Positions 3,582 to 24,524 of a stretch of DNA of 32,000 nucleotides are shown here, piece by piece. Source of the stretch: Acaryochloris marina MBIC11017. Lineage in GTDB: Bacteria > Cyanobacteriota > Cyanobacteriia > Thermosynechococcales > Thermosynechococcaceae. Location: NCBI RefSeq assembly GCF_000018105.1, contig NC_009928.1:90001-122000 (forward strand), given 5' to 3'. Positions within the stretch are counted from its first letter, which is position 1. Each line of letters opens with the position of its first letter. The notes beneath the pieces are model-generated. The model ran no database searches and was not told the origin of the DNA. It saw only the letters and a program-made list of their open reading frames with translations. The position numbers were made by a program, and so were the translations under genes.

Positions 3582-4069
3582 ATGTAAAACTCCTTGACTA
3601 AAAAATGGCCAAAGTACTGTGTAAATTGATAAATTCCAATCAAATGGCAATAGTAGAAGGCCGCTCGATATTTGAATATTGCTAGAACTTCCTTCTAGGA
3701 TCTAATGATTCATCGTACTACTGAAGCGGCACCTTAGCTGACGTCTAGCTTGGAAAGTAGAAATTTGCAATATTTACTAGAGGTTAAAATACTCTGAATG
3801 GTCTAACTTCTGATAATAGCCTTTTAGCCTCTATATAGAGATTAGATTCTCCCGTATCTTCTCATGTTTTTTAATTAACATAGGTATTCAAACCTGACTG
3901 GGTTAAGATTACATTCTGGATGTGCAGTACTCATGGGTCCATCTGCAGAATCTTTACTTAAAAATTGAAGCATGATGAGTTTATATGCTTGAGCCTCAGA
4001 TTAGGAAAACGGTAGAAAGACAGGTTAATGATAAAAAATGAATATAATTCCATGTTCAATCTAGTAGGG

Positions 4070-4177
4070 GTTGATTCCCCGCTGCTTGCAGCGAAGAAAT
4101 GGAATTGCGATCCAAATCTACGGTTTGCTATCAAGTCGTATTTCATACCCCGTCTGCTTGCAGCGAGGTAGTTGATT
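4070..4177 (-). repeat. Two degenerate copies of a hairpin-bearing repeat about 28 nt long, 71 nt apart (possible CRISPR remnant or REP-like element)
   Basis: The plus-strand cores are ccccgctgcttgcagcga (4077-4094) and ccccgtctgcttgcagcga (4148-4166). On the minus strand they read CTTCGCTGCAAGCAGCGGGGAATCAAC and CCTCGCTGCAAGCAGACGGGGTATGAAA. Each has a CGCTG/CAGCG stem followed by a G-rich 3' handle. Only two copies are present and no cas genes are in the window. Confidence 0.3.
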
Positions 4178-5612
4178 AGACTGTATAATCATTCACTCGA
4201 TAGGTGTTTGAGTACTGCAATCTTACTTACTTGGTATCCATAAAGATTTATGAGGCGAGATTTGTCCTTCCTTCAGTCAAAGTAGCCAGTATCTAAAAGA
4301 ATCCAAGCAGTTTAATCCTTTCATTAATTATAGAAATCGAACTGTTTTGACAGATAAATGAATATTTTTAACTACTTATTTAGAATCATGCATTAATTCC
4401 AATACCTTGGTGAGTTAAGCATTCGATGCAAGAACTTATCTTCGGTCTAAAGATATCCATGATAGATTTTCAATCATAAAGATACCTATCGATTGGGCGG
4501 CTTAACGGAGTTGTGAGTCGCCTTTTCCTTGCAGGGGATAATCCGAATTTGACCTGTCCCTGAAAAAGTGGATAGGTAGTTTATAATGCTGACGCTTGTT
4601 CATCGCTTTAACGCCGTCAAAGTGTTTAGAGACTCATGACTCCTAGATGTCCAGCCGCCTCCACCTTGACCTTCAATGTTGGGTACTGTCAGTTTTATCC
4701 TCACTTGTTTACAGATGTCAAAGTTCCTTGGTCCCCCTCAGACCTCGAACAAAGAAAGACTCGACTGGATCTTGCAAGTGCTATCGGGATATCCACTCAC
4801 TCTGAGTCATTGATGAGATAGGAGACCTCAAAAAGGACACACAGCCTGATTACGTCCAACACCGGCATCCTGGCAATTGAGGCAAAGTTGGCAATGGTAT
4901 CGTTGCAGTCACTGCTACCGACGTTGAGGAAAAATGACATTGCCCTTCATGTTCCGAGTGTACCAACCCAAAAGTCGCATCAAAACTGAAGATGTTTATC
5001 AAAGCAAACCTGAAATTTCGGGTTCGATGATTGATGACCTCACTGTAAGCCCTGTCAGCTAAATTTATTTTGTTAGGAATATTTTTTATATATGGAAGCA
5101 ACGATATAACTTGCTTGTAAAAACTGGAGCTTCCTCAATATATGGCTTCTCAATGTAGTTATCGCTGATATATCCTATATTTTCTATGAAATATCGGATC
5201 TTTGTAAGCGGCAGTAATCATTTATTCGAATCTATTCAGATGACTCTACTGGAACGCGCTGTATGACAGGAGCTGATTAATCTTAAGCACCTTGAGAAAC
5301 AACAGACGTCAGGAAATACAAGGTACCTATAATTAAGATTTGTTTTAAACATACTGCACTATAGTATGATACTTACTGAGAATAACAGTCAATAAGAGAG
5401 TCTTTATTTTATCCATCTGATTTCCGAAAAGAAGTTGCAACTATCTCGGTCTTAATTTAGTTTCATCGCCTGAGACACAATCCCTAGCACTTGCTGAGGG
5501 AAGTTTTCTTTGTCCAATTGGTGGCGAACAGATACCAACTTCAACCATCACTTGACATTTTCCTGGTTGGGATGATCAACAAGAAATAATTAATTTGGAA
5601 GGAGACTTTTTT

Positions 5613-6647
5613 ATGCAAACCTACGGTAACCCTAATGTTACCTACGACTGGTGGGCAGGTAACTCCCGCCTAGCAAGCTCTTCGGGTTTATTTATATCCG
5701 CTCACGCTGGACATGCCGGGCTCATATCCGTCTGGGCAGGTGGTTTCACCCTATTCGAATTGGGACGATACAGCCCTGATTTCCCCATGTGGAGCCAAGG
5801 ATTGGTTCTTCTCCCCCACTTGGCAGCGGAAGGGATTGGCATCGGTGCTGGTGGTGTAATCGTTGATCCTCAAACGATCTTTGCGGTTGGCATGGTGCAC
5901 ATCATAGCTGGTGCGGTGTTAGGTGCTGGAGCACTATTTCATCTACTCAAAGCACCTCACGACTTGAGTGAGGCTTCTGGACGAGCGAGTACCTATCACT
6001 TTGAATGGGATAACACAGAGCAGCTTAGCCGTATACTCGGGCATCATCTACTCATTTTGGGATTCTATGCCCTGCTGTTTGCAGCTCGAGGTATGTTTTG
6101 GGGTGGGTTGTACGATCCTGATATCCAAGATGTCAGATTGGTGACGAATCCAACCCTTAATCCAGCCGTCATATTTGGTTACCAGACTCATTTTGACAGT
6201 GTTGATAATCTCGAAGATATTGTCGGTGGCCATATTTTCGTCGGTCTGTTCATTATCGCAGGGGGCATTTTCCACCTGTTGGTTCCGATGTTATCTTGGG
6301 CCAAAGAGCGGGTTCTTGTGAATGGAGAAGCCATTCTGTCCTATTCTCTGGGAGCAGTAGCTTTCTTTGGATTTTTATCTGCCTATTGGTGTTCTGTAAA
6401 TACCTACGTATGGCCTGAAGAGTTTTACGGTCCTGCCTTACAAATCAAGTTTGGAATAACTCCCTATTTTGCTGATACGTTAGATCTCCCTGTTGGTGTG
6501 CACTCTGCTCGGTGTTGGTTATCCAATGCTACCTATATCTTGGCGTTCTATTTTCTCCAAGGTCACCTATGGCATGCCCTCAGAGGTCTAGGCTTTGATT
6601 TCAAGAAGGTAGATGAGTTCATCAATTCCATGGCTTACGAGACATAA
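5613..6647 (+). CDS. pcb: CP43-like chlorophyll-binding antenna protein (Pcb/IsiA family)
   Basis: The product starts [19 protein letters not shown]. It contains [21 protein letters not shown] and six hydrophobic helices, and lacks the large CP43 lumenal loop (about 344 aa). I trimmed the start to the ATG at 5613, with GGAGA at 5601-5605. Confidence 0.9.
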
Positions 6648-7175: not shown

Positions 7176-8336
7176 ATGAGCCGAGCAGGAATATTGCTGT
7201 TAAATTTGGGAGGGCCTGAGAGGCTAAGAGACGTCCGCCCCTTTCTATATAATCTATTTTCAGATCCAGAAATCATCCGTTTACGCTTTCCTGTTTTACA
7301 GGCTCCGCTTGCATGGTTAATTTCTGTATTAAGGTCTAGTAAATCTGAGAAAAACTACCAAAAGATTGGTGGTTTTTCTCCCTTGCGCGAGATTACTGAG
7401 TCCCAGGCATTTGCATTACAACAGGCATTATGTTCAGCAGGCTATCCGATTAAAACCTATGTAGGGATGAGATATTGGCATCCCTTTACGGAAGAAGCCA
7501 TCGAGCAAATAAAGCGAGACAGAATCACCGATCTCGTCATTCTTCCCCTTTACCCGCAGTTTTCAATTAGTACCAGTGGATCTAGCTTTCGCCAACTAGA
7601 GAAAATTTGGATGGCCGATCCAGGCTTGCAGACCATTAACTATACAATCATTCCTTCTTGGCACGACTGCAAAGACTATATTCGAGCGATAGCTGATTTG
7701 ATAGATGGCTGCATTGATCAGCAACCTGATGCCCATCAGGCCCATTTATTTTTTAGCGCTCATGGTGTACCCGTCAGCTATGTCGAAGAAGCTGGCGATC
7801 CTTATCAAGATGAGGTTGAGAAATGTGTGGGTTTAATTATGAAGGCCCTAAACAGGGATATACCTTACACATTGGCTTACCAAAGCCGAGTAGGTCCAAT
7901 TGAATGGCTGAAGCCTTATACGGACGAGGCAATTGTCGAAGTTGCACAACAAGGGTATAAAGAGCTAGTTGTTGTCCCCATTAGTTTTGTCTCAGACCAT
8001 ATTGAGACCCTCGAAGAAATTGACATAGAGTATCGGGAGATAGCGATCAATGCTGGGATAGAAACTTTTATTAGAGTTCCTGCCCTCAACACAAATCCAG
8101 ACTTTATTCAAGCCCTAGCCAAGTTGGTCATTCAAGCCTTAAGTGAACGCCCTGTTTTATTTAGTGATGTTTGTCCAGAGAACGCAGTGAAATTGTATCC
8201 TCAAGAACAATGGGCTTGGGGAATAACTCCCTCCGCAGAGGTCTGGAATGGGCGACTAGCTATGTTTGGGATGTTGGGAGTACTACTTGAATATTTCGTA
8301 GGATCTGGACCGCTACATTTATTAGGCTTAATGTAG
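7176..8336 (+). CDS. hemH: Ferrochelatase with a C-terminal CAB/Hlip-like helix
   Basis: The N-terminus is [32 protein letters not shown]. It also shows [25 protein letters not shown] and [15 protein letters not shown]. The C-terminal [17 protein letters not shown] matches the chlorophyll a/b-binding motif typical of cyanobacterial HemH. Confidence 0.92.
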
Positions 8337-8497: not shown

Positions 8498-9214
8498 ATG
8501 AGGGAAAAATTATCAATTCAATTGAGTGAAGGCACTAAAAAAGCTCATACAATGGCAGAGAATGTAGGCTTTGTGCGGTGTTTTCTAAGAGGAGCAGTTG
8601 ACAAGACATCTTATCGGAACCTCATCGCAAATCTATATTTTGTCTACACTGCGATGGAGCAGGAACTACGAGTTCTCAAGAAACATCCTATCATTTCCAA
8701 GATATATTTTCCTGAGTTAAATCGTAAATCCAGTCTTGAGAAAGATCTCTGTTTCTACTATGGAAATAGTTGGCAAGAGTCTATAGAACCATCTGCTGCT
8801 GCAAATAACTATGTAGAAAGAATTCATGAAGTAGCGACTACTCATCCAGAGCTACTAATTGCACACTCATATACACGCTATTTAGGCGACCTTTCAGGAG
8901 GACAAATTCTCAAGGGTATAGCTGAGCGTTCGATGAATCTATCGAATGGCGCTGGGACTGCCTTTTATGAATTTGAGTCCATCCCTGATGCGAAGGAGTT
9001 CAAGGAAGCCTATCGTCAAGCACTGAATGAACTGCCAATCAATGAGACGGTTGCTCATCAAATTGTAGATGAAGCTAATGCTGCATTTGGGCTCAATATG
9101 TTGATGTTTCAAGAGCTTGAAGGTAGTCTCATTAAAGCGATTGGGCAGATGCTTTTCAACACGCTCACACGACGCCGCAAACAAAACGGTCCTAACCTTG
9201 CGATAGCTGAATGA
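8498..9214 (+). CDS. ho: Heme oxygenase (HO-1 type)
   Basis: The product shows LSEGTKKAHTMAENVGFVRCFLRG, YRNLIANLYFVYTAMEQEL and AHSYTRYLGDLSGGQILK, and is 238 aa long. Confidence 0.9.
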   Translation: MREKLSIQLSEGTKKAHTMAENVGFVRCFLRGAVDKTSYRNLIANLYFVYTAMEQELRVLKKHPIISKIYFPELNRKSSLEKDLCFYYGNSWQESIEPSAAANNYVERIHEVATTHPELLIAHSYTRYLGDLSGGQILKGIAERSMNLSNGAGTAFYEFESIPDAKEFKEAYRQALNELPINETVAHQIVDEANAAFGLNMLMFQELEGSLIKAIGQMLFNTLTRRRKQNGPNLAIAE

Positions 9215-13434: not shown

Positions 13435-14259
13435 ATGACAAATCGCGAAAATCAACCAGAAGGACAACTTACACCAACCCAGATGATAAAAAATCTTAAA
13501 GGGAGCGACTTGGGATTAAGAGTTTATGCGGCTTGGTGGTTAGGACGATTCCGAGTTAAAACTTCTGATAGTATCAATGCTTTGATAGGTGCCTTAGAAG
13601 ATGAAGATGATAGAACAGATGCAGGTGGATATCCACTTCGACGTAATGCAGCTCGAGCTTTAGGGAAATTGGGTGACAAAAAAGCTGTTGTACCTCTTAT
13701 GGAAGCACTAACCTGTACAGATTTTCATGTTCGTGAGGCTGCAGTTCAATCATTGGGTATGCTGGGAGATCAATCGTGTATCACAAGCCTTGTACAGCTG
13801 CTTCAGGACAAAATATCAGGCACAAACCCAGCCCCAGAACTACCTAATCTTAATCAACCTTACGATTCAATTCTTGAGACGCTAGGTGAGCTTGGAGCAT
13901 CATCAGAATTACCATTAATCAGTTCTTTCTTAAATCATGAGTTGTTACGCATCCAATTCTCTGCAGCTCGTGCAATGTATCAATTGACATCCTCTGAAAT
14001 AGATGCAAAGCAGTATGCTGACAGACTAATTGAAGGTTTATCTCATCAAGATTTACAACTTCGAAGATCAGTACTACTAGATTTAGGCGCAATAGGATAT
14101 TTTCCAGCTGCAAAGGCAATCTTTAATACCTATGCGGAAAATAGTCTTAAGTTAATTTCTATGAAAGGGTTATTAAAACATGAAATCCAGAATGAAAATA
14201 ATCCTACTTTGTCTGAAAAATCCGTTATTTTAATGGAGTTAATTGACAATCTAATGTAA
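13435..14259 (+). CDS. cpcE: Phycocyanobilin lyase subunit CpcE (HEAT repeats)
   Basis: The product shows LRVYAAWWLGRFRV, ALEDEDDRTDAGGYPLRRNAARALGKLGD, FHVREAAVQSLGMLGD, LNQPYDSILETLG, DLQLRRSVLLDLGAIGY and ENSLKLISMKGLL. These match CpcE along its whole length as I recall it. It lies 245 nt downstream of the cpcA fragment, consistent with an ancestral cpcBA-E arrangement. Confidence 0.85.
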   Translation: MTNRENQPEGQLTPTQMIKNLKGSDLGLRVYAAWWLGRFRVKTSDSINALIGALEDEDDRTDAGGYPLRRNAARALGKLGDKKAVVPLMEALTCTDFHVREAAVQSLGMLGDQSCITSLVQLLQDKISGTNPAPELPNLNQPYDSILETLGELGASSELPLISSFLNHELLRIQFSAARAMYQLTSSEIDAKQYADRLIEGLSHQDLQLRRSVLLDLGAIGYFPAAKAIFNTYAENSLKLISMKGLLKHEIQNENNPTLSEKSVILMELIDNLM

Positions 14260-14759
14260 TAGAGAATACTCTATCTTGGTTATATTGATTGAGAGCACAA
14301 TTCAAAGATAATATTTATTCTGCTGGTGATACCAATTTCATTAAAAGGATGAATACTCAATATTCTGTAGGGATTATTGCTGGATTCTAGCAGCTAAATC
14401 CAGCTCATACATATAGAAAATTAGTATTAAGAATATGTTTTCAATATGATCATGAAAATAAGTGACTACATCCAACTATGGTTTTTCTATAAATATAATT
14501 TAAAGTAAAGTCCAGAAATATATAAAGTTAAGTCTATAGTTTTTGACACGTGTACTTAGTATAAATAATCATCAAGAATTAATATATTTCATAAGAGATA
14601 TGCAACAATAGGATTTATTATTGAATAAGTGTAATGTAAATTCGGCTTAGGATATATTTGGTTTTTTGAACTTAAATTGAATCACCATAAAATAATTAAT
14701 CAAGATTTGCATTGATCTATATAATCAATTTTTAATCACATACAAAATAAACTTTGAAA

Positions 14760-15353
14760 ATGACCCACTCTACTGATTCATATACATTAGCAAAATGGCT
14801 CGCTGCAGAATTCAGTAATCAAGCTCAAGCCATAGAAAATCCACCACTGTATGCTCATATACAAGTTAGTATAAGACCTTTGCCCAGAAAGCTATTGACT
14901 GGGTATTGTTTATATCTTGAACAAGCATATGCCTTTATGTTAAAAAAACCTTATCGTACGAGGGTAATACATATACTTGAACATAAGGATTCTATCTTAA
15001 TTGAAAATTATGAACTTCATAAAAAAGAGCTTTTTCTTGGTGGAACTAGAGACCCTTTGATATTGAATAAAATCTCTACTGAGCATTTAATTAAGAAAGA
15101 AGGTTGTGACATGAACGTAGAGTGGACTGGTCATAGCTTTGTTGGAACAGTAGTCCCAGGGAAATCCTGTAAAGTTGTACGGAATGGGAAAACAACTTAT
15201 TTAGATAATTCCTTTGAAGTTGATCAAAATAAATTTATTAGTATTGATCGGGGGAGAGATCCGGAAACCGATGAGCTTATTTGGGGATCAATTGCAGGCC
15301 CTTTTCATTTTTCTCGCATCAAGAGTTTTGAAAATGAATTGATCGCTACTTGA
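14760..15353 (+). CDS. cpcT: CpcT/CpeT-family bilin lyase
   Basis: The product shows LAKWLAAEFSNQAQAIENPPLYAHIQVSIRPLP, LYLEQAYAFMLKKPYRTRV, GCDMNVEW, PGKSCKVVRNGKTTYLDNSFE and DRGRDPETDELIWGSIAGPFHF. The start is taken as the ATG at 14760, because the track start at 14754 is a TTG. Confidence 0.85.
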   Translation: MTHSTDSYTLAKWLAAEFSNQAQAIENPPLYAHIQVSIRPLPRKLLTGYCLYLEQAYAFMLKKPYRTRVIHILEHKDSILIENYELHKKELFLGGTRDPLILNKISTEHLIKKEGCDMNVEWTGHSFVGTVVPGKSCKVVRNGKTTYLDNSFEVDQNKFISIDRGRDPETDELIWGSIAGPFHFSRIKSFENELIAT

Positions 15354-15762: not shown

Positions 15763-16686
15763 ATGAGTCAAGAAAGGTTTAAAGCTCTTATATATAAGAA
15801 AGATTTAGATCGAATTTCTGGATGGGTCATGGCACATCCTAATTTAGAAACAGGAGGTGACTTATTTGGTTTCTGGACTCATACTGGTTCTCCGATAATA
15901 CAATTTGTTTTAGGTCCGGGAGTAAATAGTAAACATAATGAATTTAGCTTTTATCAAGACAAAGAATTTTTAGTTCAATCAGCTGAAATTCTTATTAACG
16001 AATATGGATTGCAACATATTGGAGAATGGCATTCCCATCATCAAATAGATCTTGCAAAGCCAAGTAATGGCGATATAAATACAGTAAATAGTGCTCTTCA
16101 TAAGCACAATTTTGATAAATTTTTACTATGTATAGCTAATTTAGAGCCAGTTGAGGATATTGATAGTTTTAACACCAGTCTAGGAGCCTTTTTATTTGAA
16201 AAATCTAATTCTTATTATAAAACTGGAGCATGGGTAGTTCTTCCAGAAGATAGTCCTATTCGAATGAATTTAATCCAAAAATATAAATGGAAGAAGAGTT
16301 TCCTCCATGATCCATTTCATTCAGAGAGTTGGAGAGGCAATATCTTAGAAACTAAGCTAAGTGATCCTACGATGATATCAACAAAACCAATCGAAATCTC
16401 CAATCATGTATGGTACAGATCTTTCGAGGGTCAAGCCTTACTTAGGGCCGTACACAATGATTTAGATGAATCATTTCAGAATTTAAAAATGCTTATAAAA
16501 CCTTCTGAAGATATTTATTTTGTGTTTTATGACCAACAGAGTAAATGGCGTGTTGATTTGCCAGTAGACTATCCTCTATCATGTCCAGAAATATTTTTAA
16601 ACGATGAAAAAATTGAGTTTATTAATTGGGATAGAAGATTATCGCGAGAACTATCTAGACTAATATTTAATTTGAATGGCATATAG
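15763..16686 (+). CDS. JAB/MPN (JAMM) metalloprotease fused to a C-terminal Cys-less E2/UEV(RWD)-like domain
   Basis: The N-terminal roughly 170 aa carry E29 in NLETGGDLFG and then H90-S-H92-x8-S101-N-G-D104 (EWHSHHQIDLAKPSNGD), which is a complete JAMM zinc and catalytic signature. C-terminal residues of about 218-307 read ALLRAVHNDLDESF..IYFVFYDQQSKWRVDLPVDYPLSCPEIFLND. This is the helix, beta-meander and YP..P flap pattern of the UBC fold, but with no Cys-containing active-site segment. Confidence 0.75.
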   Translation: MSQERFKALIYKKDLDRISGWVMAHPNLETGGDLFGFWTHTGSPIIQFVLGPGVNSKHNEFSFYQDKEFLVQSAEILINEYGLQHIGEWHSHHQIDLAKPSNGDINTVNSALHKHNFDKFLLCIANLEPVEDIDSFNTSLGAFLFEKSNSYYKTGAWVVLPEDSPIRMNLIQKYKWKKSFLHDPFHSESWRGNILETKLSDPTMISTKPIEISNHVWYRSFEGQALLRAVHNDLDESFQNLKMLIKPSEDIYFVFYDQQSKWRVDLPVDYPLSCPEIFLNDEKIEFINWDRRLSRELSRLIFNLNGI

Positions 16687-16700
16687 TTAGGGTAACTAAC

Positions 16701-17144
16701 ATGAGTTGGAGTCTAGTACAACAAAAACGCTTGCTAAAAGAAAGAGAGATATTATCACAGTACTTTAAAGCATTTGAATGGGTTAACCCAACAGATAGTT
16801 GTAATACATGTATCGAAGGAGATTTATTAACTAATTCAAAAAATAAGTATCAGATCAGAGTTTACGTTCCAAGTGATTATCCAAATTCAAGGCCTGATAT
16901 GGTTGTGGTCTCTCCTGACCCATTGATAGGTTTCAATGGTAAAAATTTGCTTGATTTTGGAGCAGATATGAAGATGCACACATTGTCACCAAGGAATGGA
17001 CATGTAAATATATGCCATTATCGAGATTGGTTACCTAACCTGACTCTTTATCTTGTAGTTCTAAAAGGTAGGATATGGCTAGAGGCATTAGATGCTTATA
17101 GGAATTCTGGTTTAGAAATAAGTGAGTATTTACCACACATGTAA
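16701..17144 (+). CDS. E2 (UBC)-like protein with a candidate catalytic cysteine
   Basis: The product has an N-terminal helix QKRLLKEREIL. It then reads YQIRVYVPSDYPNSRPDMVVV (UBC flap) and MHTLSPRNGHVNIC105HYRDWLPNLTL. The latter corresponds to the HPN..G.IC...W.P..T active-site segment. The gene starts 14 nt after the JAB gene stop, so the two are probably co-transcribed. Confidence 0.65.
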   Translation: MSWSLVQQKRLLKEREILSQYFKAFEWVNPTDSCNTCIEGDLLTNSKNKYQIRVYVPSDYPNSRPDMVVVSPDPLIGFNGKNLLDFGADMKMHTLSPRNGHVNICHYRDWLPNLTLYLVVLKGRIWLEALDAYRNSGLEISEYLPHM

Positions 17145-17166
17145 TTACTCCCTTCCCGCCATAAGA

Positions 17167-17724
17167 TTATGGAACAAGTGAAAATATAAAATTCAGGCTG
17201 TTTTGAACTTGTTCAGCCGATAGAAACTGGTTAGCAGCAAAGAACTCATGGAGCTGTTGTTTGATCTGTGTCAGGGTCGTTCCAAGAGGGAGATGGTGCA
17301 GACATCGTAAGCGTAGTAAGTGAATCACATATTCAACCAAGTTCAACTTGGGAGAGTAGGACGGCAAATATAAAAACTCAACTTGAATCGATTGGGTGAG
17401 CCCCATCTGCTCTAGATGGATAGCGAGTTGGGAGCGCATCTTGCCCTTATGGGTCGGATTGTTATCGAGAATAAGGCACAGTTGAGTGTAGCCCAGCTCA
17501 ACGCTATCCAGACATAGGCCTGCAAAGTACTCAGAGATATCTTCCGTTTTAGCCTGTGGGCTCAGAGCGAAATACTCTTCGCCACTGTGGGCATCGACGC
17601 ACAGTAACCCATTGAGCTTGTTGCGAGCCCGCTCATTACTCTTGACCTGTGGACGAGTGTTGCGTTCTGCCCAGCCATAGAACAAACTAGGACGCTCAGA
17701 CACCGCAAATTCGTCAAAGAACAA
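17167..17724 (-). CDS. IS630 transposase, DDE catalytic part (orfB)
   Basis: The product shows ILFFDEF, YGWAERNTRP, LILDNNPTHK and YLPSYSPKLNLVEY. It is in the +1 frame relative to orfA, and removing one A from the A7 run would fuse the two ORFs. Confidence 0.8.
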   Translation of the reverse strand: MFFDEFAVSERPSLFYGWAERNTRPQVKSNERARNKLNGLLCVDAHSGEEYFALSPQAKTEDISEYFAGLCLDSVELGYTQLCLILDNNPTHKGKMRSQLAIHLEQMGLTQSIQVEFLYLPSYSPKLNLVEYVIHLLRLRCLHHLPLGTTLTQIKQQLHEFFAANQFLSAEQVQNSLNFIFSLVP

Positions 17725-17731
17725 GATGCGC

Positions 17732-18265
17732 TCATCCGATTGTCGTGATTGCAGTTTTTTTAACAGCCGCCACCCACTCTTTCTGGGCGTTCAGGTCAGC
17801 ATTCGCATAGTCACGATGGGCGCGTTGGTAAGATAACCTCAACTCTGATAGCAATTCGTAGATACGCGAATCTTTCAGCTGCACCTCGAATCGCTGCTCA
17901 ATCACAACGGCTAAAATTGCACCTGTCCACATATTGCGGTCAATACCATAGTCTGTCGGACGTTGCGTCAGAACCATCTCTTTGAGTTGTTGTTGTTCCT
18001 CTGGGCTCAACCGACTAGGTTTTTGATGTCGAATGGATTGGACCAAGCCCTGGAGTCCACCATCGAGATATTTGTCCATCCAACGCGTTAACGTATCATA
18101 GCTACACCCCACTTGTTCGCTCACTTGGGTACGACTGTGTCCTTCATTCAGCAATTTGATCGCGGTCAAGCGCTGTCGAATGTAGTGTTGTTGATTGCGG
18201 TAGTAGAATTTCTGCCACTCATCCGCATCAAAAGGCTTGTCCAGAAAGGCTTGTGTTCGATTCAA
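17732..18265 (-). CDS. IS630 transposase, N-terminal HTH part (orfA)
   Basis: The product shows LLNEGHSRTQVSEQVGCSYDTLTRWMDKYLDGGLQGL. The start is uncertain: the track ORF runs beyond the IS end, and the first in-element candidate is the TTG at 18265. The ORF ends just after an A7 run (T7 at 17755-17761). Confidence 0.65.
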   Translation of the reverse strand: MNRTQAFLDKPFDADEWQKFYYRNQQHYIRQRLTAIKLLNEGHSRTQVSEQVGCSYDTLTRWMDKYLDGGLQGLVQSIRHQKPSRLSPEEQQQLKEMVLTQRPTDYGIDRNMWTGAILAVVIEQRFEVQLKDSRIYELLSELRLSYQRAHRDYANADLNAQKEWVAAVKKTAITTIG

Positions 18266-18429
18266 TGTGACTATTTGCTCTTTTCCCCATTTTACAGCGG
18301 GAAGGGAGTAATCAGAGCTGATTGCTGAATAATGGATAAAGCTAACTAATTGGCAGAAGTGTGCAATGCGTCTGAACATTCAGTCCTCACTACAGTCTTG
18401 AATATATGAGCTGTCTTCCTTTGATTGCC

Positions 18430-19095
18430 CACCGTGAGCGTAGAACCTACCCCAGTGATATGAGTTATGCGGAGTGGGATGTACTTCGTCATCTACTGCT
18501 TCCTACTTAAGGATTCGGAAGACCTCAAATCGTCAGTCTCAGAGAAACCCTCGGTGCCATATTCCATGTCCAGCGCAGCGGTTGACAGTGTGAAATGCTT
18601 CCCCATGACTTCCTCTCTTACGAGACAGTCTATAAGTATTTTAAAAATTGGCATCGTAAAGGTATCAGGTAGACCATTCTCACTGCCCTACGGCATCAGC
18701 TCTGAGAAGGCGTGGGTCAAGCAGCGGACTTCAGTGTGGTGATTGCAGACTCTCAATCGGTGAAAACAGCAGAAAAAAGGGTTCGGTCTATTGACAAAAG
18801 CGAATATCTCAAAATGATTAGGAGCTGTGGTGGTTTTAGATGAGCATCGGGAACGTTTGTCTCGTCTAGAGGTTGTTTGAGTGGACCAAGGGTACTCTGG
18901 AGAAAACTTTGAGTGAGCGGTATGGAAGGTATGTGGTGAGCAAGTGCGCAAAGAGATGATCAAGCGAGAGACTCAGGGCTTTCAGATATATCCTAAGCAC
19001 TGGGTTGTTGAACGATGTTTTGGTTAGCTGAATCGCTATTGTCATTTGGGGAAAGACTACGAGCTCTATCCAGAAACGAGTGAAGACATGATATA
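18430..19095 (+). pseudogene. Heavily decayed IS5-family transposase with an internal deletion
   Basis: A single frame reads YPSDMSYAEWDVLRHLLLPT*GFGRPQIVSLRETLGAIFHVQRSG*QCEMLPHDFLSYETVYKYFKNWHRKGIR*..IADSQSVKTAEK. The text then jumps, in another frame, to VDQGYSGENF..GFQIYPKHWVVERCFG*LNRY..GKDYELYPETSEDMIY. There are at least 4 in-frame stops and the central catalytic part is missing. Confidence 0.7.
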
Positions 19096-19107
19096 TGGGT
19101 ATTTTTT

Positions 19108-19641
19108 TTGACTGATCATGCATCGATTAACAAATTTAGTTCCGCCATCTGCGATGCTCAATCGGTCAAAGTGGGCAATCCCCGGTGTCACTCGATTGGG
19201 TTTGATGGTGGAAAAATGGTCAAAGGTCGTAAACGTCATGTGCTCGTTGATACTTTAGGGCTGGTTTTGATGGTGATGGTCACTGCTGCCAATATCTCTG
19301 ACCAACGAGGGGCCAAAATACTGTTTTGGAAAGCTCGACGCCAAGGTGCGAGTTTGTCCCGTCTAGTTCGGATATGGGCCGATGCTGGCTATCAAGGACA
19401 AGCTTTTATGAAGTGGGTAATGGACCGTTTTCAATATGTCTTGGAAGTGATCAAACGCTCAGATAATCTAGCGGGGTTTCAGGTTGTTCCCAAACGATGG
19501 ATTGTAGAACGGACGTTTGGATGGTTGTTGTGGTCTCGACGTCTTAATAAAGATTATGAGCTTTTGACCAGAACAGCTGAAGCGCTCGCATATGTGGCGA
19601 TGATTCGACTCATGGTTCGAAGGCTGGCGCAGGAGTACTAA
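19108..19641 (+). pseudogene. 5'-truncated IS5-family transposase (C-terminal DDE part intact)
   Basis: The product shows DAQSVKVGN..GFDGGKMVKGRKRHVLVDTLGLVL, IWADAGYQG, VVPKRWIVERTFGWL and RRLNKDYE. The N-terminal roughly 100 aa (YPSD..WRMLP region) are absent. Confidence 0.8.
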
Positions 19642-20209
19642 AACTTCTCAAACAGCCTCTTAAACGATACTTGTATTCAACCTTTTTGTCTTGTAGTTAA
19701 GAATACAGTTTTTTGTAATCAAGCATAAATTTAAACTGGCCATAGAAAAATTGTCATTATGGTTTGATAATTAGTTTTTATATAACTAATAAAATTTCGT
19801 AATTAAGATTCCATCATATACTTTGAAACTACAAAAAGTTGAATAAAGGGTAAATTTGGATACATTTTCTTATAGTGAAATTTAGATCTAGTGAAAGGAT
19901 ATATGAATATAAAATCAAACATAGATGGAACATTTCTGTAGGTTTCGATACGTTCTATTGCCTAAACGCTAGCTCCTGAGAAGCTAACCAACAGGAATGA
20001 TTAATTCAGGAAGGAATGTAATATTTGCTTTGTTGATGGGTAACATTACTCTAATTAGGTTCAGATTCCTGAACTGTCAGAAATAAAATAATGTAACCAT
20101 CAGTATCATTTGTAACAGAAATTTCCTTAGAACTAGAGTTTGTTTACTCAAGGCTTGTGTACGAAAACTGATTCAAAATTTAGGTTTTGATTCCATATTT
20201 TGTATTTGA

Positions 20210-22893: not shown

Positions 22894-23115
22894 CTAAACC
22901 ATTTGCATCATTTGAGGGGCAGGCAAAGTCCAGCCTTCCGCTTCGTAGAATTCCATCAAGGATTCTATGGCTTCCTGCCCATGTTTAGCAGCCTCTTCAT
23001 AGGTTTGGCCATCAGTAACGGGCTGCATCACCCGGTCAAATTCTGGTAACGACACTACATAGCATTGATCCTCTTCCGACCACTCGATCACCATTCGATA
23101 CTTAGTCTGAGTCAT
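22894..23115 (-). CDS. hicB: HicB-family antitoxin-like protein
   Basis: The product reads YRMVIEWSEEDQCYVVSLPEFDRVMQPVTDGQTYEEAAKHGQEAIESLMEFYEAEGWTLPAP, a HicB/UPF0150 N-terminal fold pattern. The start at 23115 (MTQTKYRM) overlaps the hicA end by 14 nt. No C-terminal DNA-binding domain is apparent. Confidence 0.7.
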   Translation of the reverse strand: MTQTKYRMVIEWSEEDQCYVVSLPEFDRVMQPVTDGQTYEEAAKHGQEAIESLMEFYEAEGWTLPAPQMMQMV

Positions 23116-23317
23116 TCGATAACGCCTCCAATTGCTGTAGCGCTTTCTGCACTTTGCGTTCCAAATAGAGTGGGGCATCTGCCCCATCTTTGCGGGCAAC
23201 CGTGATCACCTGGGGCAATTGAGGATGCTTCCAGTTACTGTGAGAGTATTTGCCCGGTCGGGAGATAAACCCAGCCTCCTTGAGCATAGCCTTGATCTCA
23301 CGAATCTTCTTAGGCAT
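23102..23317 (-). CDS. hicA: HicA-family mRNA interferase toxin
   Basis: The 71-aa product reads IREIKAMLKEAGFISRPGKYSHSNWKHPQLPQVITVARKDGADAPLY. This matches the HicA pattern K..E....L...GF...R..GSH..W.H. Confidence 0.75.
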   Translation of the reverse strand: MPKKIREIKAMLKEAGFISRPGKYSHSNWKHPQLPQVITVARKDGADAPLYLERKVQKALQQLEALSNDSD

Positions 23318-23477: not shown

Positions 23478-24524
23478 ATGGAAGCATCAGGGTTAGTTCG
23501 CTTAGAAATCGATGAGTCGGCAGTTGATGTCGATTTGCTTAGAGCAGTCTTGGTGGAGAAAACCAAACCCTCCACGCGGGAAGGGTATACCAAGGATCTG
23601 GTGGACTTCTTTTTATTCGTGACCCAAGGGGAAATGGTCTATGGAGTTGAGGGACCGAAGCGAAAAAGTGAGATAAAGGCGCAGGTGAAGAGGGAATTAT
23701 CTAGGCTGAGTCAATCCTTTGTGGGGATTGGCAGACTGAAGGCTTTAGAATTAGCCGCTCGGTATCGAGAATGCATGATGCAGCGAGGGTTACAAGCGAA
23801 TACTATCAATCGGCGGTTGTCCGCAGTGAAGTCCATGGTGCGGATGGCCCGTCGTTTAGAGATGTGTGATTGGACTTTGACGGAAGTTGATGGTTTAACG
23901 GTGAAACCTTATCGAGATACCAGAGGAATTACAGCCTCTAAATTTCGACTGATGATGGTATTCATCAATCGGTTTTCCCTAGCTGGGGCTCGGGATTTCG
24001 CCATGATGACGCTACTCTGGGAGGCGGGATTGCGACGGTCTGAGCTGGTGGGCTGTGATGTCCGTCATTTTGACTCGGAGCAGAAACGGTTGTCGATTTT
24101 AGGGAAAGGAAGGAACGAAAGGGAGTGGATTGATTTGACGGAAAGTGGGGTACTAGCGATTTCAGAGTGGCTGAAACTACGAGAAGTTTATGCCCTCACG
24201 GAGCCGTTGTTTATCTCGTTGGATCGGGCGAATTGGGGGTCGCGGTTGTCAGGGACATCGGTATATCGAATTGTCCGGGCTCTAGCGAAGAAGGCTGGGG
24301 TGAGCGAGAACTTTGGGCCTCATAAGGTACGCCATAGTGGCACAACGACTTATTTGGAAATGACGGGTGGAGATTTGCGCGGAGCACAAGCTTATTCCCG
24401 ACACGCCAATCTCAATACGCTCAAGTTCTATGATGACAATCGCAAGCAGCTTCAGAAGAAGGCGTCTGCGAAGTTGGCAGAGACGATCTCTTGGAATGAG
24501 GCATCAAGTGAGTCGTCAGATTAA
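23478..24524 (+). CDS. Tyrosine recombinase (phage-integrase/Xer family)
   Basis: The product has an N-terminal SAM-like domain. The catalytic region shows GLRRSEL (Arg), HKVRHS (His-x-x-Arg) and SRHANLNTLKFYDD (His...Tyr). Confidence 0.85.
   Translation: MEASGLVRLEIDESAVDVDLLRAVLVEKTKPSTREGYTKDLVDFFLFVTQGEMVYGVEGPKRKSEIKAQVKRELSRLSQSFVGIGRLKALELAARYRECMMQRGLQANTINRRLSAVKSMVRMARRLEMCDWTLTEVDGLTVKPYRDTRGITASKFRLMMVFINRFSLAGARDFAMMTLLWEAGLRRSELVGCDVRHFDSEQKRLSILGKGRNEREWIDLTESGVLAISEWLKLREVYALTEPLFISLDRANWGSRLSGTSVYRIVRALAKKAGVSENFGPHKVRHSGTTTYLEMTGGDLRGAQAYSRHANLNTLKFYDDNRKQLQKKASAKLAETISWNEASSESSD

Follow-up and report, generated by a model that had tools for sequence, protein, structure and literature searches.

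Bacterial ubiquitination-like systems are known from several operon families. Type II cyclic-oligonucleotide-based antiphage signalling systems (CBASS; operon type 6b of Iyer et al. 2006) encode a ThiF-type activating enzyme (E1), a conjugating enzyme (E2) with a cysteine and a JAB isopeptidase. The antiviral Bil systems (BilABCD; 6c/CEHH) encode a modifier, an E2, a JAB protein and an E1 (PMC11601596; 10.1101/2023.09.26.559546). In the Bub systems (6E; DUF6527), a Cys-less E2-fold protein is combined with a JAB protein that releases the modifier from a fusion precursor (PMC11601596; Iyer 2006, row 6e). Here, we analyse two adjacent genes in a 32,000-nucleotide stretch of Acaryochloris marina MBIC11017 (contig NC_009928.1, positions 90,001 to 122,000); we refer to this whole stretch as the window. 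Gene 1 encodes a predicted JAB metalloprotease fused to a domain that resembles ubiquitin E2 variants (UEV) and RWD domains, and gene 2 encodes a predicted E2. Together, the two genes form the 5' half of an operon for JAB-UEV, E2, small protein and E1, which is conserved in other bacteria and split in A. marina.

The operon shares with the Cap2 and Cap3 proteins of Type II CBASS the combination of a ThiF-type E1, an E2 with a cysteine and a JAB isopeptidase. Also common to both are the lack of an E3, a certain defence-island flavour and a JAB domain that is nearest to Cap3-type models. Moreover, in both cases the activated C-terminus need not be Gly-Gly, e.g., the E. cloacae cGAS of Type II CBASS is an E1 substrate that ends in Phe-Ala (Ledvina et al., bioRxiv 10.1101/2022.03.31.486616). 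However, Cap2 is a fusion of E2 and E1, whereas the two are separate genes in all of the loci that we analysed. Further differences from Type II CBASS are the UEV-like domain fused to the JAB, the dedicated candidate substrate of ~60 amino acids and the distinct N-terminal domain of the E1. Neither a CD-NTase or other nucleotidyltransferase nor a CBASS effector gene was found among the scanned open reading frames (ORFs) of the window or among the conserved neighbours.

The four-gene logic is that of Bil, in which a small protein is conjugated to targets. However, the Bil modifier is a Gly-ended ubiquitin-like protein (Ubl) with a beta-grasp fold, while the small protein of our operon has no beta-grasp signal and ends in Gly-Phe-Phe or Gly-Phe-Ala (GFF or GFA). 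The E1 also differs: that of Bil is a multidomain protein (IAD-AAD-CYS), and the one considered here has a single ThiF domain and an unknown N-terminal domain. The fusion of the JAB to a UEV-like domain is a third difference from Bil. With Bub, our operon has in common a Cys-less E2-fold domain and a JAB that occurs together with a fused modifier precursor. In Bub, however, the Cys-less E2 is itself the working E2, which forms a serine oxyester and is fused to the Ubl, and the JAB is fused to the E1. Here, by contrast, an E2 with a cysteine coexists with a Cys-less E2-fold domain on the JAB. No DUF6527 protein is present among the annotated or Pfam-scanned neighbours.

Outside these families, the occurrence of an active E2 along with a Cys-less E2 variant resembles eukaryotic Ubc13-Mms2, as a resemblance only, and a JAMM protease with UEV partners is found in BRCC36-Abraxas-BRE (BRISC/BRCA1-A). 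The eukaryotic pairs are separate polypeptides that act on ubiquitin, whereas here the protease and the UEV-like domain form one chain, and the modifier is a protein other than ubiquitin. Finally, Pup is a tag of ~60 amino acids, which is probably poorly structured and has a conserved C-terminus that needs processing. It is ligated via a side-chain carboxylate by PafA, a glutamine-synthetase-like enzyme, without an E1, E2 or JAB. The size of the candidate modifier is that of the tag in the Pup-proteasome system of actinobacteria, and in several phyla our operon runs directly into a Clp/Hsp100 gene, which recalls Pup-Mpa; however, the E1, E2 and JAB enzymes of our operon set it apart from Pup.

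A conserved four-gene operon

We scanned one genome per species (GTDB representatives) and found relatives of the pair in 141 species; 80 loci were analysed, with the gene order established by hidden Markov model (HMM) searches of all ORFs at each locus. At 80 genome loci, the JAB-UEV gene is directly followed by the E2 gene. A locus was taken to be informative if it includes at least 1.8 kb of sequence beyond the E2 gene, and every informative locus of other species (65/65) has an adjacent gene for a ThiF-type E1. The annotated loci of Halomicronema, Microcoleus and Planktothrix (four loci) likewise have the order JAB, E2, ThiF-family gene. Hosts belong to at least seven phyla, comprising cyanobacteria, actinobacteria, Bacteroidota, Caldisericota, Kiritimatiellota, Verrucomicrobiota, Fibrobacterota and others. 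The gene order is JAB, E2, E1, and in actinobacteria it is E1, JAB, E2. The gap between the E2 and E1 genes falls into two main classes: ~200-230 bp, or ~20-40 bp where the E1 is longer by ~60 amino acids.

The initial annotation of the window, made from the sequence alone, had regarded the two genes as an orphan module. This description is apt for the window, which contains no partners, but not for the family, in view of the E1 adjacent to the pair in all informative loci elsewhere. It had also asked whether an E1 and a Ubl are conserved neighbours in homologous loci. For the E1 the answer is yes, but the conserved small neighbour ends in GF[F/A] and is not a beta-grasp protein ending in Gly-Gly (GG). 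A further point was that such loci might turn out to be common and already annotated as a known system. They are indeed not confined to a few genomes, with loci in 141 species and 333 representatives of the E2, but we found neither a curated model nor a description of them.

We also considered the possibility that the system is carried by phages. This idea was rejected, as viral contigs contain only three weak matches to the JAB domain, all in other architectures.

Predicted enzymes and a candidate modifier

The two ORFs lie where the initial annotation had placed them, in the same direction on the plus strand and separated by 14 nt (Table 1). The 307-amino-acid product of gene 1 corresponds to an A. 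marina protein (P0001, 100% match), and 205 homologues were found. Its N-terminal part is a predicted JAMM metalloprotease with an MPN fold. The complete JAMM signature that had been noted (E29, H90, H92, S101 and D104) is at the positions given, and these residues are invariant in 39 homologues from several phyla, including actinobacterial and Bacteroidota proteins. PADLOC JAB models match the domain at 1.9e-13. In the AlphaFold model (predicted local distance difference test, pLDDT, of 88), Foldseek relates the JAB domain to BRCC36, CSN5, Rpn11 and AMSH with E values of 3e-9 to 1e-6 and a probability of 1.0, and BRCC36 is the top structural match. Scores against several curated families are low: the Pfam Prok-JAB family gives 18.1 bits for the JAB domain, which is under its 25-bit cut-off, and the scores are 18.9 bits with NCBIfam Cap3 (cut-off 200) and 29.2 bits with the NCBIfam 6A-MBL cap2_3 model (cut-off 320, E 3.3e-7).

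The C-terminal part of the same protein is supported as a Cys-less E2-fold (UEV/RWD-like) domain by its modelled topology and by profile comparisons. The model has a helix at residues 221-237, strands at 239-245, 251-257, 260-266, 276-279 and 282-284, and a second helix at 291-305. Searches with single sequences or small profiles yielded matches below threshold that nevertheless all fall into one superfamily, namely UQ_con, RWD, FANCL UBC-like, VPS37A UEV-like, E2s and the UEV of BRE; the Pfam matches to RWD, UQ_con and UEV are all under the cut-off. When aligned by hhalign to an alignment of close E2s, the domain gave a marginal result (60% probability, 23 columns). The comparison of 55 C-terminal domains with a wide E2 alignment gave 92% probability and an E value of 6.8e-7 over 46 columns, which span helix 1, the beta-meander and the PxDFPxxxP flap in the first half of the E2 family. 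No cysteine is conserved across the aligned domains of the family. These results agree with the earlier assignment of the C-terminal ~90 amino acids to a UEV/RWD-like domain that lacks an active-site cysteine.

The fusion is a trait of the family and not a peculiarity of the window protein, given that the UEV-like domain is found on 68 of the family's 81 JAB proteins. The suspicion that a JAB-UEV fusion is an undescribed architecture was borne out to the extent that it matches no curated family, and the best Pfam, NCBIfam and PADLOC matches are either generic or under the cut-off. In a Bacteroidales subclade (L057, L067, L073, L075, L077, L080 and L085), the JAB is short (230-253 amino acids) and has no UEV-like domain, and five of the seven loci encode the small protein as a fusion with the E1. 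In this subclade, a JAB that has lost its docking domain thus seems to go along with a modifier fused to the E1. Another unusual homologue is a 489-amino-acid JAB-UEV protein (P0052; 36% identity, E 1.6e-71) on a 713-kb contig that is annotated as the coral Stylophora pistillata. This case represents either contamination by a symbiont or associate, or horizontal transfer.

Gene 2 encodes a predicted E2 of 147 amino acids that looks active and has a catalytic-type cysteine, Cys105. The fold was recognised only by structure, as the E2 profile produced nothing meaningful when searched against the PDB by sequence alone. With the AlphaFold model (pLDDT 92), the best 50 PDB matches are all UBC-fold proteins, almost all of them canonical E2s along with a few Ube2V UEV chains; these matches, which include UbcH5, Ubc9 and Ubc13, have probabilities of 0.95-1.0, template modelling (TM) scores of 0.41-0.55 and E values of 2e-3 to 1e-2. 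The Foldseek searches that the initial annotation had proposed thus lead to JAMM proteases for the JAB domain and to the UBC fold for the protein that it had called UBC-like. Sequence methods place the protein under every curated cut-off in Pfam, NCBIfam and PADLOC, e.g., 13 bits against 27 for UQ_con and, for residues 15-72 only, 15.6 against 25 for Prok-E2_E (PF14462).

Cys105 lies within an I-C-H motif, and His93 precedes it by 12 residues, as does the histidine of the HPN motif. Both residues are invariant in 32/32 close homologues, which fits the HPN-to-Cys-like segment that had been proposed. In a larger alignment of 149 sequences (148 family representatives and the window protein), Cys105 is present in 136 and His93 in 142. 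A lack of conservation of Cys105 and of the JAMM residues had been named as an argument against the module; instead, the 32 E2 homologues and the 39 JAB homologues keep these residues. The E2 family is rare but coherent: in a set of 1.84 billion proteins, 333 cluster representatives are found at E<=1e-10. By analogy, a pairing of the UEV-like domain with the E2 in the manner of Ubc13-Mms2 is plausible. Some members of the E2 family (P0278, P0306, P0325 and P0367) have ~310 amino acids and match the E2 profile in two stretches. These may be tandem E2-fold proteins, and hence another pairing of an active with an inactive E2 domain.

In the E1 of the family, Pfam recognises one ThiF domain (residues ~145-307 of 437), which follows an N-terminal domain of ~125 amino acids. 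This N-terminal domain has no sequence match in the PDB and no likeness to the JAB family. The motifs typical of adenylating enzymes are present, and the invariant features in 67 E1 sequences are GLGSxG, DxDR..E..N..RH, D243, R248 and four cysteines of the zinc-binding type. In cyanobacteria and actinobacteria, the E1 ends in C-terminal tails such as ...EDNIFAS, ...DDGFFG, ...DDNIFK or ...TTGFFGGAR, which resemble the ...EDGFFxx end of the small protein (e.g., L002:12865-12948, L012, L020 and, in A. marina, L090:3745-3831); the E1s of other phyla are without such tails. Judging from this resemblance, the E1 tail could be an auto-inhibitory pseudo-substrate or a site of self-conjugation.

A protein of ~60 amino acids is encoded between the E2 and the E1, or is fused to the E1, at 65 loci according to an iterated HMM (63 after de-duplication). 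It begins with a short helix-like segment, which is followed by a hairpin-like LVFDPxTGELVV, by PDAV and by a C-terminal [D/E]GF[F/A]. Among the 63 non-redundant loci, the protein is a standalone product in 51 and is fused in frame to the E1 in 12. The terminal motif is GFF in 30 cases, GFA in 25, PF[FY] in five and GYF in one, and it is absent from two of the fused copies. Beyond this motif there are no residues in 7 loci, 1-3 residues in 27 and 5 residues in 12, or else the E1 itself. Precursors of ubiquitin-like proteins are characterised by just such a conserved C-terminus, beyond which there is a tail that can be disposed of or a fusion partner, and the small protein accordingly looks like a processed modifier precursor. 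Single members match Multi_ubiq (0.02) and TmoB (0.022) weakly and without significance, and we rejected these families as relatives of the small protein.

We propose that the two genes of the window make up the first half of a conserved, ubiquitin-type conjugation cassette with four genes, in which the small protein would serve as the modifier. Our rough estimate of the probability of this reading is 0.7. Around the gene content, motifs and folds presented above, we infer the following chemical steps. The JAB domain would trim the tail of the small protein, or cut the small protein off the E1, and would thereby leave a ...GFF or ...GFA carboxylate. A precedent for the second variant is provided by Bub systems, in which a JAB domain frees a fused Ubl (PMC11601596). 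The E1 would adenylate the exposed carboxylate, and the small protein would be passed as a thioester to Cys105 of the E2 and then be joined to an amine of a target protein. The JAB domain could also undo this linkage. The UEV/RWD-like domain may dock the protease on the E2 or on the modifier, as Mms2 does for Ubc13 and BRE for BRCC36. The initial annotation had found neither an E1 nor a beta-grasp ORF ending in GG in the window. Both are in fact absent, but the likely modifier is a ~60-amino-acid protein ending in GFF or GFA instead, and this would explain why there is no such beta-grasp ORF.

The split locus of Acaryochloris marina

The operon of A. marina is split, and neither of the two fragments contains the modifier gene. 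This species has the sole informative locus that lacks an adjacent E1. Neither tblastn, for which three E1s, two STAND NTPases and the small ORF served as queries, nor a six-frame HMM search detected an E1, a small modifier or a STAND gene in the window (nothing below E 0.1). The operon ends at the stop codon of the E2 gene, beyond which there is transposon debris. A degraded insertion sequence (IS) element resembling IS5 fills the place that the genes of the small protein and the E1 have in other species.

Nearer to the E2 gene there is an IS630-family element, which sits at a TA and starts on the last base of the E2 stop codon. One contig (L006) ends at position 18311 of the window. In a contig from a sister strain and another sample (L097), whose E2 is 97% identical, the IS630 site is empty and the sequence resumes at window position 18313; here, L097:3885-3927 equals window 18313-18355, and the 89 bp beyond contain no small gene. 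We therefore rejected IS630 as the cause of the break: the small gene is missing downstream of the empty site as well, so the break predates IS630, which is a later, strain-specific insertion. With IS630 removed, ~43 bp on the 3' side of the E2 stop codon are common to the two Acaryochloris strains and are followed by complete divergence. The shared end may represent a recombination breakpoint, or yet another mobile element may terminate there.

A. marina does have an intact E1 (P0208; E 4e-182) with all of the invariant residues. Its locus (L090) apparently lies elsewhere on the 273-kb replicon that carries the JAB-UEV gene, since the largest contig is 273,121 bp long for both proteins, and in this locus the E1 is found 3' of a gene for a 217-amino-acid HEAT/PBS-lyase-like protein (L090:1653-3831). 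There is no small ORF in the AT-rich 245-bp gap before this E1. The JAB-E2 and E1 fragments have guanine-cytosine (GC) fractions of 0.32-0.38, whereas the IS630 and PDDEXK genes that flank them reach ~0.47-0.49; the fragments may be two pieces of one imported island. The window copy is probably crippled, and it may work only in trans, or not at all.

The A. marina copy might even be a non-functional remnant, left by a break of the operon and a loss of the modifier gene that are too recent for the JAB-UEV and E2 genes to have disappeared. A. marina stands alone among the informative loci in its lack of an adjacent E1, no small ORF exists at the E2 site or at the E1 site, and the region is full of IS elements. 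However, the JAB-UEV protein, the E2 and the distant E1 are all complete, and none of their invariant residues has been lost. Identical copies of the protein occur on 17 contigs, and the gene order is the same for a variant with 97% identity. In addition, the break is older than IS630, so the genes have survived apart for some time. It is also important to consider that the absence of the small gene is a result for the E2 site and the E1 site of the A. marina genome. On balance, we regard a remnant as possible, with the odds somewhat against it.

Table 1. Features of the conjugation module and its surroundings, in positions of the window
Feature	Position	Strand	Basis
cpcE-like HEAT/PBS-lyase gene	13435-14259	+	Pfam HEAT_PBS 2.8e-23
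cpcT	14754-15353	+	Pfam CpeT 3.7e-66
JAB-UEV/RWD fusion gene, 307 aa (amino acids)	15763..16686	+	ORF call; product identical to A. marina P0001
Predicted JAMM/JAB metalloprotease domain, aa 1-173	15763..16281	+	PADLOC JAB 1.9e-13, Foldseek
JAMM codons	E29 15847-15849, H90 16030-16032, H92 16036-16038, S101 16063-16065, D104 16072-16074	+	coordinates verified
Linker, low model confidence	aa 174-215	+	AlphaFold model
Cys-less E2-fold (UEV/RWD-like) domain, aa ~216-307, flap motif LPVDYPLSCPEIF	16408..16683	+	model topology and hhalign
Predicted E2 (UBC-fold) gene, 147 aa	16701..17144	+	ORF call; model pLDDT 92
HPN-equivalent His93	16977-79	+	homologue alignments
Putative catalytic Cys105	17013-15	+	homologue alignments
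IS630-family element, DDE_3 transposase and helix-turn-helix (HTH) ORFs	17144..18312	-	Pfam DDE_3 1.9e-17 and HTH families
IS630 terminal inverted repeats, 24 nt	17144-17167, 18289-18312		nucleotide sequence
Degraded IS5-like element, frameshifted; DDE_Tnp_1 ORF at 19108-19641	18400..19700, approximate	+	Pfam DDE_Tnp_1 8.2e-22

The cpcE-like gene and cpcT lie immediately 5' of the JAB-E2 pair, and this order is kept on other A. marina contigs. The AT-rich setting beside these bilin-lyase genes, as it was originally described, is borne out by the Pfam matches (Table 1) and by GC fractions of 0.35-0.38 for the cpcE-like gene and cpcT, as compared to 0.32-0.35 for the JAB-E2 module. Further upstream in the window there are genes for a CP43/Pcb-like chlorophyll-binding protein (5595-6647), a ferrochelatase (7176-8336) that ends in a C-terminal helix of the CAB-like kind, and a haem oxygenase (8498-9214). 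The window also contains several transposase genes, and the region is rich in IS elements. Taken together, the Pcb-like, ferrochelatase, haem oxygenase, cpcE-like and cpcT genes and the many IS elements look like an accessory region for pigment metabolism.

On the minus strand at 22894-23317, two small ORFs of 71 amino acids (starting with MPKKIREIKAMLKEAGF...) and 101 amino acids overlap. Judged from their translations alone, they look like a toxin-antitoxin pair of the HicA/HicB type. Beside them, at 23478-24524, is an ORF whose translation, on the same basis, resembles a tyrosine recombinase.

Neighbouring genes, substrates and significance

The neighbours of the operon in other genomes, which include STAND NTPases in cyanobacteria, suggest a role in defence or in stress proteostasis. 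A two-ring Clp/Hsp100 gene is located 2-50 bp past the E1 gene, on the same strand, in 10 loci of Bacteroidales, Kiritimatiellae and Fibrobacter (L044, L051, L056, L058, L059, L061, L063, L074, L084 and L086; e.g., L059:3569-5773 and L056:12495-15098). In one of these (L063), the distance ranges from 13 bp to ~260 bp, depending on the start codon. In three more loci (L072, L003 and L018), such a gene is present at a greater distance. The encoded proteins have the domains AAA, AAA_lid_9, AAA_2 and ClpB_D2-small and comprise 734-867 amino acids, or 1245 in L074. The next gene often encodes a membrane protein with a C-terminal SH3_3 domain. The tag may feed the unfoldase to which the operon is linked.

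A distant relative of the JAB/E2/E1 triad is encoded on the conjugative plasmid pBb323S2b of Bradyrhizobium barranii (L089:4017-10387). Its JAB has 346 amino acids and no detectable UEV-like domain, its E2 has the motif ICHW, and its E1 (483 amino acids) carries the small-protein motif fused to the N-terminus. The genes past the E1 encode a hypothetical protein, a protein with a dsDNA-nuclease domain and a TIR-domain protein, and an IS630 element and a VapC toxin gene are nearby. With these neighbours, the plasmid appears to carry a defence island at this locus.

It is important to set out the points that weigh against a conjugation cassette with the small protein as its modifier. First, comparison of the small protein with Pfam, NCBIfam, the PDB, Ubl proteins and beta-grasp folds revealed nothing significant. 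Second, the E1 has no universally conserved cysteine apart from those of the zinc-binding type; the best candidate, Cys188, is present in 59/67 sequences, and for this reason the thioester step at the E1 is uncertain. Third, the assignment of the UEV-like domain rests on the 46-column profile-profile match together with the model topology. Fourth, the suggested role in defence or proteostasis is based on neighbourhoods that differ between phyla. Fifth, the modifier gene is missing in A. marina, so it is doubtful that the window copy is active. Lastly, we found no description of the operon in the literature, but an earlier one is possible, e.g., in Burroughs et al. 2011 (Mol Biosyst) or 2012.

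An alternative to the small protein as modifier is that the E1 and E2 activate the C-terminus of a larger partner, such as the E1 tail or a STAND NTPase, in which case the ~60-amino-acid protein would be a regulator, adaptor or inhibitor. Cap2 of Type II CBASS activates the C-terminus of a CD-NTase in this way, and the JAB of our operon is closest to Cap3-type models (PADLOC JAB 1.9e-13; 6A-MBL cap2_3 3.3e-7). The E1 tails of cyanobacteria and actinobacteria resemble the end of the small protein, and a gene for an NB-ARC/HTH STAND NTPase is located divergently upstream in 13 cyanobacterial loci. However, STAND genes accompany the operon in cyanobacteria only, and the C-termini of the two STAND proteins that we compared are unlike each other, while the E1 tails are conserved in two phyla only. 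The small gene, by contrast, is the only partner that is conserved in every phylum, and its product has the conserved C-terminal motif and variable tail described above and is repeatedly fused to the E1. We therefore consider a larger partner to be an unlikely substrate.

A second alternative is a pathway for peptide natural products, in which an MccB-like E1 would adenylate a ribosomal peptide for cyclisation or for ligation to something other than a protein. The candidate substrate is short and peptide-like. MccB carries a peptide clamp as an extra N-terminal domain, to which the extra N-terminal domain of our E1 might be likened. In addition, genes for radical SAM proteins (~450-510 amino acids) are present within a few kb at six loci of Bacteroidales and Kiritimatiellae (L056, L058, L059, L061, L069 and L082; e.g., L059:8168-9526), two of which (L056 and L058) also have an Amidohydro_2 gene (e.g., the genes at L056:2555-4006 and 4008-4760). 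However, radical SAM genes occur in few loci, and there is no conserved transporter or immunity gene, with an EamA gene in Caldisericota only. The N-terminal domain of the E1 has no similarity to any solved structure, and the E2 with its cysteine and histidine and the JAMM-UEV protein, both of which are hallmarks of protein conjugation, are found throughout the family. A peptide pathway is accordingly very improbable.

The least credible alternative, which goes back to a speculation of the initial annotation about phycobiliproteins, is that these proteins or their lyases are the targets that the module tags or frees of a tag: both A. marina fragments do lie directly 3' of HEAT/PBS-lyase-type genes in AT-rich DNA, but this adjacency is seen in one lineage and within an accessory region rich in IS elements, no cpcE, cpcT or HEAT homologue is next to the system in the other ~80 loci (~20 of them cyanobacterial), and most hosts are non-photosynthetic, with Bacteroidales, Caldisericota and actinobacteria having no phycobilisomes.

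The operon appears to be an uncharacterised variant of the bacterial ubiquitination-like systems. The arrangement JAB-UEV, E2, small protein and E1 is not among the operon types 6a-6e that Iyer et al. 2006 distinguished, and the operon is not described in Kaur 2020, Chambers 2023, Ye 2024 or Ledvina 2022. Within Pfam, NCBIfam and PADLOC, no curated model captures the E2, the JAB-UEV fusion or the small protein. We tentatively extend our conjugation-cassette reading to the family as a whole, although we give this broader proposal less than even odds. It would be an undescribed conjugation family in at least seven phyla, in which a modifier that ends in GFF or GFA and lacks the beta-grasp fold is produced as a precursor, in some cases as a fusion with the E1, is matured and removed by a JAMM-UEV protease and is attached by an E1 and an E2 with a cysteine. 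In Bacteroidota, Kiritimatiellota and Fibrobacterota, the Clp/Hsp100 unfoldase of the operon would take the tagged proteins. Such a system would correspond, in bacteria, to the unfolding that is directed by ubiquitin or Pup, or else would serve as a new form of antiviral tagging.

Conjugation by Type II CBASS, Bil and Bub has been shown only recently, and each new family brought unexpected chemistry. The Acaryochloris copy is itself of limited importance, given that it is split and possibly inactive. The family has unusual traits of its own: the fusion of a JAMM protease to a Cys-less E2 domain, a short modifier candidate that ends in Phe or Ala instead of Gly-Gly and shows no detectable ubiquitin fold, and the direct operon link to Clp/Hsp100 in gut Bacteroidales and their relatives. 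With respect to annotation, several hundred proteins that are labelled 'hypothetical' or 'Mov34/MPN/PAD-1' would gain a context, as would E1s that are mislabelled as 'molybdopterin-synthase adenylyltransferase'. Should conjugation of the small protein prove true, E1-E2 cascades would be able to handle a wider range of substrates, and bacteria without Pup and proteasomes would have a system to tag and unfold proteins.

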